Notes under the pieces: model-generated
What the model was told of the DNA's origin: nothing
The model's input: the letters and a program-made list of their open reading frames with translations, nothing else
The model's database searches: none
Source: Kofleriaceae bacterium
Lineage (GTDB): Bacteria > Myxococcota_A > Polyangia > Haliangiales > Haliangiaceae
Direction of reading: 5' to 3'
Length of the DNA: 32,948 nucleotides
Assembly: GCA_046597055.1 (NCBI GenBank)
Contig: JBKJLC010000121.1
Coordinates: 1-32,948 of the forward strand
Part shown: positions 18,946 through 27,734 of the stretch, piece after piece
How positions within the stretch are numbered: the stretch's first letter is position 1
Layout: each line of letters starts with the position of its first letter
Made by a program: the position numbers and the translations under genes

Positions 18946-22005
<3,060 letters not shown>

Positions 22006-22012
22006 GGGTACG

Positions 22013-22041
22013 AGTATAAGCGTGGGACCGGGGCGTGCCAT
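22013..22041 (-). promoter_or_regulatory. Sigma70-type promoter for the S41 protease (probably leaderless)
   Basis: ATGGCA-N17-TATACT-N7-ATG on the minus strand. Confidence 0.6.
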
Positions 22042-22092
22042 TCCGTGTTCGTGCTCTCGGCGCCGAACGCCGCGTGTAGTATGGTGACCGCC

Positions 22093-23298
<1,206 letters not shown>

Positions 23299-23300
23299 TC

Positions 23301-24182
23301 GTGGCAGGCACGCTCTACGTGGTCGCGACGCCGATCGGCAACCTCGAGGATCTGTCGCCCCGGGCGGCCCGGGTGCTGCGCGACGCCGCGATCATCGCGG
23401 CCGAGGACACCCGGTCGGTGCAGGTGCTGCTCGAGCGCGCCGACCCCGGCGGCACCCGCCGCGGCGAGCGCCGGATCGTCAGCGTGTTCGAGGGCAACGA
23501 GGCCGCGCGGGCCGCGTCGCTGGTCGGCGAGCTCGCGGCCGGGCGTGACGTCGCGCTGGTGAGCGAGGCCGGCACTCCGGGGGTGTCCGATCCCGGCGAG
23601 CGGGTCGTGCGCGCCGCGATCGCGGCCGGCATCGCGGTGGTGGTGGTGCCCGGGCCGGTCGCGGCGGTCGCCGCGCTGGTCGCCAGCGGGCTGCCGACCC
23701 AGCCGTTCCTGTTCGTCGGCTTCCCGCCGCGCGAGGCCGGCGCGCGCGCCGAGCTGGCCGGCAAGCTGCGGGCGACCGATGCCACCATGATCTTCTACGA
23801 GGCGCCCGACCGGGTGGCGGCGACCCTGGCGACCTTCGCCGCGGCGTTCGGCGACGACCGGGCCGCGAGCGTCTCGCGCGAGCTGACCAAGCTGTACGAG
23901 GAGCACGTGCGGGGCACGCTGGGTGGGCTGCGCGACCGGTTCACCGAGGCTGCGCCGCGCGGCGAGTGCACGATCGTGGTCGCCGGCGCCCCCGAGGCCG
24001 GCGAGGTCCCCGACGCCGACGACGTCGAGGTGCTCGTGCGGGCGATGCTCGCCGACGGGCTGGGGCCCAAGGACATCGCGCAGCGGCTGGTCGTGAAGAC
24101 CGGCCGGCCCCGGCGCGAGCTGTACCAGCTGGCGCTGGCGCTCGCGCGCACCGTGGTCGACGTGCGCGAGGACGAGCCGTGA
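23301..24182 (+). CDS. rsmI: 16S rRNA (cytidine1402-2'-O)-methyltransferase
   Basis: [64 protein letters not shown]. Confidence 0.95.
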
Positions 24183-25489
24183 CCGCGACCGCGCCGGTGT
24201 CGTGGCAGGGCGGGCTGCCCTGGTTCGACGTGCAGACGTTCGTCATGCCGTGCGGGCTCGAGGTGATGGTCCACGAGGACCACGCGGTGCCGCTGTGCGC
24301 GGTGTGGATGGGCTACCGGGTCGGCAGCTCCGACGAGGGCGACGGCACCAGCGGCTTCGCCCACCTGTTCGAGCACATGTTCAAGAACTCGCTCCACCTC
24401 GGGGGCCGCCACCACTACGAGGTGCTGCGCGAGGCCGGCGCCAGCGACGCCAACGCGTCGACCGGCACCGATCGCACCGTCTATCACGAGACGATGCCGC
24501 GCCAGGCGCTCGAGGTCGCGCTGTGGATCGAGTCGGATCGCCTCGGCTACTTCTTGCCGGGGCTGGATCCGGCCCGGCTCGAGAACCAGATCCGCGTCGT
24601 GCAGTCGGAGCGCCGCCAGCGCTACGAGAACGCGCCGTACGGGCCCGAGCGCTTCCGGGTCGCCGAGCACCTGTACCCCGAGGGCCACCCGCTGCGGTAC
24701 CTGACGATCGGGCGCCACGAGGACATCGCGGCGGCGACCCTCGCGAAGGTCGAGCAGTTCTACCGGACCTGGTACGTGCCGGCCAACGCGACCCTGGTCC
24801 TCGCCGGCGACGTCACCCTCGAGGAGGCGCACGAGCTGTGCGAGCGCTGGTTCGGCAGCTTCCCGGCGTCGGCGCGGCCGGCGCGGCGGGCGTGGCCGCA
24901 GCCCGAGATCGCCGGCCCGGTGCGCAGCGAGCTGGTCGATCCGCTGGCCGCGCTCGACCGGGTGCACCGCGCATGGCACGGCCCGGCCAGCCACACCGAC
25001 GCCGACGTCGCGCTCGACGTGCTCGCGCTGGCGCTGGCGACGCCGGGCACCGGCCGGCTGTGGCGGCGGCTGGTCTACGACGCGCCCCTGGCCCAGCGGG
25101 TGTCGGCCCACGTCTCCTCCGGCCGGCTCGGCGGCGAGGTCCATATCACCGTCGATGTCCGGACGGGCGTGTCGATCGACCAGGTCGTCACCATCCTCGA
25201 CGAGGAGCTGGCGGCGGTGCGCGAGGGTGGCGCGGCCGCGGTCGACGCGCGCTCGGTCGCTCGTGGCGTCGCGCGGCGCGAGGCGGCGCTGCTGTGGCGG
25301 CTCGACGGCGTCGGTCGGCGGGCGGCCCTCCTGTGCGGCGCCCAGCTGGCGACCGGCACGCCCCAGGGCGTCGCGGTCGAGCTCGAGCGCTACACGCGGC
25401 TCGACACCGCGGCGGTGGCCGCCGCGGCCGCGCGCTGGATGGCGCCCGAGCAGATGGTCGAGGTCGTGACCCGCGCCGGCCGGAAGTAG
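24179..25489 (+). CDS. M16 family (pitrilysin-like) zinc peptidase
   Basis: GTGA overlap with rsm[19 protein letters not shown] (HXXEH), [33 protein letters not shown]. Confidence 0.9.
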
Positions 25490-25561
25490 GCACTGTCGTC
25501 ACCGCGCCCACGTTTCTTACGACTACCGGTCCGGGCGCCGGACCTCTATCCTCCGGCCCCC

Positions 25562-25696
25562 ATGACCAAGCGCGCGCTGAGCCTCGAGCCGAAGAACCTG
25601 GTCCCGCAGCCCACCGTGCGCGCGCTCGCGTCCGACAGCCTGGCCCGCGCCGCGGGCGACCGGGTGGTGACGGTGTCCACGCAGCTCGCGAAGTAG
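25562..25696 (+). CDS. 44-aa small ORF with double-glycine-leader-like sequence (not in ORF track)
   Basis: MTKRALSLEPKNLVPQPTVRALASDSLARAAGDRVVTVSTQLAK; all sense codons end in G/C; TATCCT 9 nt upstream of ATG. Confidence 0.55.
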   Translation: MTKRALSLEPKNLVPQPTVRALASDSLARAAGDRVVTVSTQLAK

Positions 25697-25728
25697 CGGC
25701 GCGCGCGCCGAGCGGCGCCGCTGGCGGG

Positions 25729-26658
25729 TCAGCTCGGCCGCACGTGCGACGCGAGCCGGGCCGCGAACCGACCGGCGATGTCGGTGCCGGCGCGGGCGTC
25801 GAAGCCGAGGAACATCGGCGACGGGTTGAGCTCCAGGAAGCGCAGGGTGCCGTGGGCGTCGCGCTTGATGTCGAGCCCGGTGAAGCGCAGGCCGATGACC
25901 TCGGCGGCGCGCACGCACTGCGCCTGGACCTCGGCCGGCAGCGTGATGGCCTCGCAGCCGTCTTCGTTCTGGCGGAAGTCGAGCGCCTTGGTGTCGATGC
26001 GGATCGCGGTGACGATCTCGCCGTCGAGCACGTAAACCCGGATGTCCTCGCCGGGGAGGAGCTCCTGGAAGGTGACCGGGGACGCGGCCAGGGTGTCGAG
26101 GCGCTCGTCGGTCAGATCGGCGGCGGTGAGCTCGCGGGTGGCGGCGCCGCCCGAGACCGGCTTGTAGGCGATGCGCCGGCCGTGCGCGAAGCGCCGGACC
26201 TCGGCCGGGTCGTTGGTCCAGCAGGTCGCCGGCACCGGCAGCCCGGCGGCCTGGAGCAGCCCGAGCTGGAACGGCTTGGTGACGCGGTGCTGGCCGGGGC
26301 TGTTGTAGAAGGGGACACCCGCCTCGTTCCAGCGATGGACCAGGCCCATGATCATGTCGGCGCGCTCGCGGTTGATCAGCGCGTTGCGACGCAGGTCGTC
26401 GGCGGTGACCGACGGGTCGGGCTCGGCGGTGATGATGCTCAGGCCGAGGTTGCGGACGTACACCGAGGCGGGGCGGAGCGCCGCGCCGTCGATCGAGATG
26501 GCGTCGAGCTGCTCACCGAGGGTGATGCGCAGCGAGCCAGGGAAAAGGGTCGCGTCGAGCGCGACGACCGGCGTCCCCATGGCCCGCAGGCGGTCCGCGA
26601 TCCCGGCGGCGTGAGCGTCCGCGGTGGGACCGATGATGACGACTGGGTGGGTGCTCAT
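25729..26658 (-). CDS. ATP-grasp graspetide synthetase (PsnB/MvdD/RimK-like omega-ester ligase)
   Basis: GGAG RBS then MSTHPVVIIG; KPFQLGLLQAAGLPVPATCWTNDP, YKPVSGG, FQELLPGEDIRVYV, DFR motif, FTGLDIK, FLELNPSPMF; 28 nt downstream of a precursor. Confidence 0.92.
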   Translation of the reverse strand: MSTHPVVIIGPTADAHAAGIADRLRAMGTPVVALDATLFPGSLRITLGEQLDAISIDGAALRPASVYVRNLGLSIITAEPDPSVTADDLRRNALINRERADMIMGLVHRWNEAGVPFYNSPGQHRVTKPFQLGLLQAAGLPVPATCWTNDPAEVRRFAHGRRIAYKPVSGGAATRELTAADLTDERLDTLAASPVTFQELLPGEDIRVYVLDGEIVTAIRIDTKALDFRQNEDGCEAITLPAEVQAQCVRAAEVIGLRFTGLDIKRDAHGTLRFLELNPSPMFLGFDARAGTDIAGRFAARLASHVRPS

Positions 26659-26686
26659 GGGGACTCCGGTCACGGCGAATCGTGGC

Positions 26687-26920
26687 TCAGCTCTCGGTGC
26701 CGCCGCCTTCTTCGCCGATCGCGAGGGTCGTGTACTCGCCGCCGCCCTCCTCGCCGAGGGCCTGGGTGGTGTAACCGCCGCCGCAGCCACCCTCTTCGCC
26801 GAGCGCGAGGGTGGTGAAGACGGGCTTCTTGTCGTTCTTGCCGCCGGTGACGAGGCCGAGGTCCTCGATGAAGAGCTTGCGGGTGGTGGTCGTGGAGGGG
26901 TGGGTGGTGGGCTTGCGCAT
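26687..26920 (-). CDS. Plesiocin-type graspetide precursor A1 (77 aa, 3 cores)
   Basis: MRKPTTHPSTTTTRKLFIEDLGLVTGG|KNDKKPVF TTLALGEE GGCGGGY TTQALGEE GGGEY TTLAIGEE GGGTES. Confidence 0.93.
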   Translation of the reverse strand: MRKPTTHPSTTTTRKLFIEDLGLVTGGKNDKKPVFTTLALGEEGGCGGGYTTQALGEEGGGEYTTLAIGEEGGGTES

Positions 26921-26932
26921 AGACGAACCGGC

Positions 26933-26951
26933 CAATACAGGATGCGTGCCA
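26933..26951 (-). promoter_or_regulatory. Sigma54-like promoter of precursor A1
   Basis: TGGCACG-CATC-CTGTATTG: exact -24 box, variant -12 box; repeated before precursor A2. Confidence 0.65.
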
Positions 26952-27107
26952 CCTGAGGCCCGTATCCCCTCGCGCGCTTGGCGCGTCCGGCGCGACGCAA
27001 CCTGCGCAGCGATGCGCGACCTGCGCACGGCTCGTGCGTCAGTTGCGCACCGACGAGCAGGTGGGTTCGGACCGGGAGCCAGGTCCTGGGACTGGCATTT
27101 CCCGCGG

Positions 27108-27341
27108 TCAGCGCTCTTCGCCGCTGTCCTCGCCGTAGGCCATGGTGGTGCCGCCGCCGTCCTCCTCGCCGATCGCCATGGTGGTCTCGTAGGACTCCTC
27201 GAGCAGCAGCCGCGTGGTCGTGCAGTCCTCCTCGCCGAGCGCGAGCGTCGTGTACCCCGAGCGAGCGCCGGTGACGGCACCGAGGTCCTCGATGAAGAGC
27301 GTGCGAGGGGCGTGGGTCGACAGCTTGTCGTTCTTGCGCAT
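27108..27341 (-). CDS. Plesiocin-type graspetide precursor A2 (77 aa, 4 cores)
   Basis: MRKNDKLSTHAPRTLFIEDLGAVTGA|RSGY TTLALGEE DCT TTRLLLEE SYE TTMAIGEE DGGG TTMAYGED SGEER. Confidence 0.93.
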   Translation of the reverse strand: MRKNDKLSTHAPRTLFIEDLGAVTGARSGYTTLALGEEDCTTTRLLLEESYETTMAIGEEDGGGTTMAYGEDSGEER

Positions 27342-27351
27342 GGTCGTTCCG

Positions 27352-27370
27352 CAATACAGACGACGTGCCA
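27352..27370 (-). promoter_or_regulatory. Sigma54-like promoter of precursor A2
   Basis: TGGCACG-TCGT-CTGTATTG, identical to the A1 element apart from the 4-nt spacer. Confidence 0.65.
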
Positions 27371-27466
27371 GCCGGGGGCGGTGCGATGTCGCGCGGTTGG
27401 CGTGGAGGCGTGCTGCGCGGTCGCGCACCGCGCTGCGCGACTGGTGCACCCGCATTGCCCGCTGGC

Positions 27467-27494
27467 TTGACATACCCCCGGGGGGTATTAGAGT
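27467..27494 (+). promoter_or_regulatory. cop operon promoter with CsoR operator
   Basis: TTGACA-N16-TAGAGT-N6-ATG; perfect dyad ATACCCCC-G-GGGGGTAT (27472-27488) fills the spacer, matching the C/G-tract operators of CsoR; csoR is in the operon. Confidence 0.88.
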
Positions 27495-27500
27495 CGGGTC

Positions 27501-27734
27501 ATGTCCCAGCCATTCGCGCTGTCCATCGAAGGCATGCACTGCGGTGCGTGCGTGCGCCGGGTGCGCGCCGCGCTCGACAAGATCCCGGGCGTGACGGTCG
27601 GCGAGGTCGCGATCGGCAAGGCGGCCGGCACGCTCGAGACCGCGTCGCTGGAGGCGGTGGCCGCGGCGGTCACCCAGGCCGGCTACCCCGCCACGCCCGC
27701 GCCGACGACCCACCGCGCGCCCGACGCGTCATGA
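27501..27734 (+). CDS. copZ: Heavy-metal-associated (HMA) copper chaperone
   Basis: LSIEGMHCGACVRRV..AVTQAGY; first gene after the CsoR operator. Confidence 0.88.
   Translation: MSQPFALSIEGMHCGACVRRVRAALDKIPGVTVGEVAIGKAAGTLETASLEAVAAAVTQAGYPATPAPTTHRAPDAS

Follow-up and report, generated by a model that had tools for sequence, protein, structure and literature searches.

The window analysed here (the whole stretch of 32,948 nucleotides) holds three adjacent genes on the minus strand, i.e., precursor A1 (27108-27341), precursor A2 (26687-26920) and a PsnB-type ATP-grasp macrocyclase of 309 aa (25729-26658), the last of which begins 28 nt past the A2 stop and has GGAG placed 4 nt before its ATG. 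An earlier note on this DNA had described two 77-aa ORFs before an ATP-grasp gene, and this is the order in which A1, A2 and the ligase were found. It had also described the small ORFs as hidden, and both indeed lie at the ends of longer listed ORFs. The interval given there, 25729..27341, spans exactly the distance between the stop of the ligase and the start of A1. Each precursor gene is preceded by a copy of an upstream element, and the three genes occupy a lineage-specific insertion that extends approximately over 25490..27465, between an M16 peptidase gene and a copZ-copA-csoR operon.

Precursors and their upstream elements

Both precursors are 77 aa long, are 52% identical to each other and carry a leader reading LFIEDLGxVTG, followed by Ala in A1 and by Gly in A2. 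In A1, LFIEDL occupies residues 15-20 and the GA site residues 25-26. Its four cores start at residues 31, 42, 53 and 65 (31-38, 42-49, 53-60 and 65-72), with L, R, M and M as their first variable residues. Three of these cores are strict TTxxxxEE motifs, one of them Gly-free, and the last one (core 4) ends in ED. Core 2 (42-49) begins its variable part with Arg, carries Leu where Gly is usual and is immediately preceded by a third Thr; since three Thr stand at its start, its register is ambiguous. In A2, LFIEDL is found at residues 16-21 and the GG site at 26-27, followed by three canonical TTxxxGEE cores (36-43, 51-58 and 64-71; 3/3 strict TTxxxxEE) with L, Q and L as first variable residues and with Gly-rich linkers between them. 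The combination of an LFIEDL leader with three or four TTxxxxE[ED] repeats, as previously noted, is thus exact for A2 (three) and A1 (four). A1 is 52% identical to PsnA2 (P0131) and 56% identical to its best-scoring homologue, P0123, while A2 is 49% identical to PsnA2. The sole PDB match of A2 is PsnA2(14-38) in 7DRM (E 2.3e-4).

The TTxxxxE[ED] motif occurs 74 times in the 16.75 million six-frame codons of the 8.4-Mb genome, which corresponds to approximately 2e-4 occurrences expected per 50 residues. A1 and A2 are the only frame segments in the whole genome that pass a filter of two cores, or of a leader and one core. A scan of the same genome for additional LFIEDL precursors or a PsnB paralogue yielded none, the sole other ligase match being 27% identical. 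In all three genes GC3 lies at 0.94-0.96, matching that of the flanking genes. In run X3, the stretch is spanned by three overlapping contigs, none of which shows more than one difference; X3 comes from the same study as the possible source runs and is not independent, and with this restriction the agreement of its contigs makes an assembly artefact unlikely. No RNA dataset was listed for the stretch. Two 151-nt pieces on the precursor genes in run X13, which is probably DNA, were not counted as expression.

The approximately 100 bp before A1 and before A2 (27342-27449 and 26921-27028, minus strand) are alike, with a local alignment score reached by one of 1000 random genome windows and by none of 1000 shuffles. 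This element is GC-rich and includes TGGCACG-N4-CTGTA, which occurs twice in the genome, only before A1 and A2, and ends 13 nt and 15 nt before the respective ATG. We take this motif to resemble a sigma-54 promoter, but with GT in place of GC and unusually close to the ATG (13-15 nt). No copy of it was found ahead of the homologous precursors examined in myxobacteria, and similar TGGCAC-type motifs precede the precursors of loci L027, L029, L030 and L042. Judged from these sequences, A1 and A2 are likely the outcome of a tandem duplication that copied promoter and gene as one unit. Tandem precursors were considered as an unusual trait and dismissed as such, as two genomes (G317 and G456) have two each and a third (G444) has four clustered copies. 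The latter, at locus L085 (G444:C1149:1071-2630), are four tandem LFI[ED]DL precursors within 1.6 kb whose core sets differ.

The deviations in the A1 cores were compared with those in related precursors. In 142 wider homologues, with 1012 cores in total, Gly is found at the usual place in 972 cores, an ED ending (TT..ED) in 11, and Arg as first variable residue in 68. The 45 closest short precursors have 155 cores, none of which carries Arg at this position. Basic and hydrophobic first variable residues are mixed in 70 of 187 homologous proteins, and together with the 68 wider Arg cores this weakens the idea that A1 is unique through its Arg core. Gly-free nine-residue motifs number 13, distributed over eight of the 187 homologues, and three of them lie in the precursor at L108:4034-4267, directly before the PsnB-identical gene; this precursor also has one canonical core, and one of its three nine-residue motifs ends in ED. 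The leader and the first core are invariant across a 23-row precursor alignment.

Other precursor architectures were observed beside related ligases. In Myxococcus/Pyxidicoccus-type loci (L003, L005, L012, L014 and L016), the ligase is closely preceded by short single-core precursors, whose leader is a variant form and whose cores end in EET or EEK/EES; most of them escape a two-core filter. Loci of Actinomycetota and Acidobacteriota (L026-L029, L031-L038 and L040) encode Cys-rich single-core precursors approximately 2 kb ahead of the ligase gene; in the core, two neighbouring Cys stand before EE, and a membrane or thioredoxin-like ORF lies between precursor and ligase. Loci of betaproteobacterial ligase relatives (L015, L017 and L047:4528-5004) encode eight-core precursors with a helical-looking C-terminal tail and a stop that abuts the ligase start. 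A same-genus genome holds a seven-core TTxxxxEE repeat ORF (L109:3389-3805; G006:C48), and no ligase matching the window ligase (P0003) at E 1e-30 was found there.

The ATP-grasp ligase

Compared with solved structures, the ligase matches PsnB best (7DRM chain A, E 1.2e-81, 278 bits), the next match having an E value of 4e-13. A global alignment with PsnB, for which we used the full-length gene from locus L108 that matches the 7DRM chain, gave 144 identical residues in 306 aligned positions (47%). The PsnB paper (10.1101/2021.03.09.434688) names 19 residues, of which 16 are kept (R72, R101, Y171, K172, T180, R181, R192, L196, V201, F203, R213, I227, D233, F234, R235 and F292) and three are changed (I193L, R195T and I241C). 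The catalytic set is present, with R207 corresponding to Arg213, R69 to Arg72 and D227-F228-R229 to the D(F/W)R loop, so that the DFR motif reported in the earlier note is located at residues 227-229. According to the same paper, Arg213 of PsnB presents the ring-forming Glu, the DFR loop is essential, and R101 and many leader-pocket residues are conserved in group 2a enzymes only (10.1101/2021.03.09.434688). The group 2a set is present here as well (R97 for Arg101, Y165, L187 with Ile changed to Leu, L190, V195, F197, R175 and R186), with L190 and F197 as the counterparts of the leader-pocket residues Leu196 and Phe203.

Curated family models are less specific for this protein. No NCBIfam model reached its curated cut-off, the best being TIGR04187 (90 of 350 bits), and neither NCBIfam nor Pfam returned a PsnB-specific model. 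The ligase scored 57.5 of 143.4 bits against TIGR00768 (RimK-family), 38.5 of 275.6 bits against TIGR02144 (LysX), and 51.8 of 425 and 49.3 of 475 bits against the MvdC and MvdD models. A microviridin (group 1) identity was rejected based on these MvdC/MvdD scores below the cut-offs, the presence of one ligase only and the lack of a TxKxPSD-type core in A1 and A2. A RimK/LysX identity was likewise rejected, because the scores are below the curated cut-offs and the PsnB match is far stronger.

RimK is the sole Pfam family above cut-off for the ligase, and many of its homologues are named 'glutathione synthase/RimK-type ligase'. Both facts could be read as pointing to a housekeeping enzyme of the RimK/LysX type, next to which the small ORFs would be unrelated or chance frames. 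We regard this as having almost no probability, since the match to PsnB reaches 278 bits and those to RimK, LysX and related glutamate ligases 23-45 bits (with E values of 1e-10 or worse for RimK, LysX and the microviridin enzymes), the group 2a residues are conserved, the clustering of motifs in A1 and A2 is far beyond chance and the gene, unlike a housekeeping gene, was not found in close relatives. The structure-match scores and the conservation of PsnB residues effectively refute it. Whether the ligase is nearer to RimK/LysX or to PsnB had been set as a check beforehand, and the answer is PsnB by far; the leader and core motif of the precursors and the orthology and catalytic residues of the ligase all agree with the plesiocin-type class to which the locus had been assigned.

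The nearest ligases in the protein collection are 63-65% identical. A quick unrooted tree, in which PsnB was not included, was built from the window ligase together with 49 ligases of the loci and 41 of 119 listed homologues. Here the window ligase falls into a group of metagenomic and betaproteobacterial enzymes (38 rows, support 98) that is separate from the Nannocystaceae ligases. In contrast to this placement, A1 and A2 resemble the myxobacterial type. As this tree has no root or clade test, we do not name a donor of the cassette. In a collection of approximately 15 billion proteins, A1, A2 and the ligase are each alone in their own 90% cluster, and on this ground the three sequences are taken as new within a class that is already known; the earlier note, too, had not recognised them. 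The family is large: of 8000 candidates scored, at least 517 are ligase relatives, and there are 819 precursor-like clusters. The precursor filter matched at 23 of 47 related loci, and several of the others hold single-core variants missed by the filter. A literature search returned no paper on this locus, the main graspetide surveys and their supplements being outside its reach.

Insertion site and distribution

The M16 peptidase gene (24179-25489) follows rsmI, and the copZ-copA-csoR operon starts at 27501. The orthologous M16 locus was found in 15 of the 16 same-genus genomes searched (65-85% identity). In 12 of these 15 loci copZ begins approximately 30-145 bp past the M16 match, and the remaining three show other sequence or end. 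The gap between M16 and copZ in the window is 2011 bp and holds the three cassette genes and an orphan ORF of 44 aa (P0168; 25562-25696, plus strand), which is convergent on the ligase and called as a gene (GC3 1.0). Searches with P0168 gave no match in NCBIfam, Pfam or the Atlas, no paralogue and no counterpart among 120 other genomes of the same family.

The ligase was sought in 36 same-family genomes, 16 of them of the same genus, and was found in none. Precursor profile matches were found in one of 67 same-family genomes, versus 26 of 71 in another family of the same class (f14), which includes a genome identical for PsnA2/PsnB; the host is accordingly inferred to be a myxobacterium, likely from soil, of a family other than f14. 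These distributions suggest that the cassette was likely gained recently by this lineage. A repeat scan at the insertion found no target-site duplication and no terminal inverted repeat.

The flanking genes were also inspected. The M16 peptidase was rejected as a candidate leader protease, as its orthologues occur in 15 of 16 same-genus genomes without the ligase and its synteny with rsmI and copZ-copA is conserved, in an orientation opposite to that of the cassette. Further upstream in the window (18946-23298), the gene for an S41 peptidase of 1031 aa, which has PDZ, CARDB and SH3 domains, is divergent from a sigma-70 (RpoH-like) gene. A sigma-70 scan found the copZ promoter only. This promoter (27467-27494, plus strand) has a C-run/G-run palindrome as spacer, is kept in several same-genus loci (L059-L062), and presumably includes the CsoR operator in that palindrome.

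None of the three reading frames of the cassette is disrupted, their GC3 is like that of the host, and both copies of the upstream element are conserved, which argues against a second alternative, namely that the plesiocin-derived cassette is a silent or decaying passenger, with a ligase that perhaps still works, peptides that are not released and an A1 that drifts to loss of function. The cassette lacks a transporter or protease, its distribution is patchy (ligase in 0/36 same-family genomes) and two of the four A1 cores deviate, as such a passenger would predict. However, cores as deviant as those of A1 recur in unrelated precursors, including the neighbour of the PsnB-identical gene, and an exporter is encoded in only a subset of GG-motif graspetide clusters (PMC11626197), and the genome has six C39 domains. 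We therefore hold this alternative to be improbable.

Proposed pathway and relation to known systems

We propose instead that the cassette, with its two LFIEDL precursors and a PsnB orthologue, very probably makes two group 2 graspetides by forming Thr-Glu side-chain esters in each repeat. By orthology with PsnB (10.1101/2021.03.09.434688), the leader Phe would dock in the ligase pocket around L190 and F197 and activate the dimeric ligase. R207 would then present the first core Glu to ATP, and the second Thr would attack the acyl-phosphate to form the inner ring. The first Thr would next close onto the second Glu to form the outer ring, giving a hairpin bicycle per core. The analogy with PsnB gives us high confidence that these ring-forming steps would be carried out by the R207/DFR ligase.

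The unmodified core peptides that follow GA and GG have calculated monoisotopic masses of 5494.41 (A1, 51 aa) and 4935.29 (A2, 50 aa). A loss of six waters is predicted for A2. For A1, the two canonical cores would account for four waters and the deviant cores for up to four more, with a main product expected at six to seven. Hence, of the ester counts given in the earlier note, six for the three-core A2 is well supported, whereas eight for the four-core A1 stands only as a ceiling, given the deviations in cores 2 and 4. Replacing T or E by A in the PsnA2 core slowed cyclisation more than 4-fold (10.1101/2021.03.09.434688), and the deviant A1 cores may therefore be poor substrates.

After ring formation, a weaker prediction is that the leader would be cut after GG or GA and the product exported by a C39-peptidase ABC transporter encoded elsewhere. 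No peptidase or exporter lies inside the cassette, and the genome holds six PF03412 (C39) matches above cut-off, all on other contigs. It is likewise predicted less firmly than the ring formation that the products would inhibit serine proteases, by analogy with the RcpA-derived peptide and with plesiocin, for which Ki values of 16 nM for elastase and 7.5 nM for chymotrypsin are given in a review (PMC10125368). A more specific and rather doubtful idea is that A1 is a natural multi-target protease inhibitor in which core 2 closes in a widened Gly-free register of nine residues (two Thr, five residues and two Glu, instead of the canonical eight residues), and which together with A2 forms a two-peptide cocktail. 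The widened register would join Thr41 to Glu49 and Thr42 to Glu48, and the canonical one Thr42 to Glu49 and Thr43 to Glu48. If the idea were true, the nine-residue register would be a recurring, uncharacterised ring size for PsnB-type ligases, and A1 and A2 would be a co-regulated inhibitor cocktail for trypsin-, chymotrypsin- and elastase-like proteases.

Overall, the locus contributes two unseen sequences to a family of which few members have been characterised, as well as an example of a plesiocin-type cassette as a 2-kb lineage-specific insertion. It also offers a compact three-gene system to probe the tolerance of PsnB-type ligases for Gly-free, three-Thr and ED-ending cores, which is relevant to engineering libraries of multicyclic peptides and to the question of whether inhibitors of different proteases are combined in natural precursors. 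No general view is changed, and the chemistry would be new only if the widened ring register exists.

The closest known system is PsnA2/PsnB of Plesiocystis pacifica (group 2a; PDB 7DRM-7DRP), with which the cassette shares the LFIEDL leader, a double-Gly-type site, tandem TTxxxxEE cores and a single ATP-grasp ligase with conserved R72, R101, R213, DFR and leader pocket, the precursors being 49-52% identical. PsnA2 has four near-identical Leu-first cores, in contrast to L/R/M/M and L/Q/L here, with one core Gly-free and one ending in ED. Both precursors adjoin the ligase here, whereas psnA2 is distal to its ligase (10.1101/2021.05.19.444834). The precursor-then-ligase order is also found at L044-L046 and at L108, the locus of the PsnB-identical gene. 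A HlyD-like gene follows the ligase at L108, unlike in the cassette, which has no HlyD-like or membrane-protein gene.

A second comparison is with the group 2 system RcpA/RcpB/RcpC of Rheinheimera, described in PMC11626197. Like A1, RcpA mixes canonical and non-canonical cores that are served by one ligase. RcpA, with TTxxxED and VTxxxxED as deviant motifs, acquires four (major product) or five (minor product) esters, below its motif count, with the Asp ester of the shorter ED-ending motif formed in the minor product only (PMC11626197). The leader site of RcpA is GG, as in A2, and is cut by a C39 domain; the rcp cluster, unlike the cassette, encodes its own C39-ABC exporter, and an RcpA-derived peptide inhibits elastase (PMC11626197).

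The engineered peptide Psn-LLLR resembles A1 in that a single chain combines Leu cores with Arg cores (in A1, core 1 has Leu and core 2 has Arg), and is reported in a review to inhibit both chymotrypsin and trypsin (PMC10125368). From the PsnA2 sequence, LLLR would denote the first variable core position. Such mixing is not unique to A1, as the 70 homologous proteins with basic and hydrophobic residues at that position indicate. Unlike in Psn-LLLR, the Arg core of A1 is Gly-free; it may form its rings in a different register or fail to cyclise.
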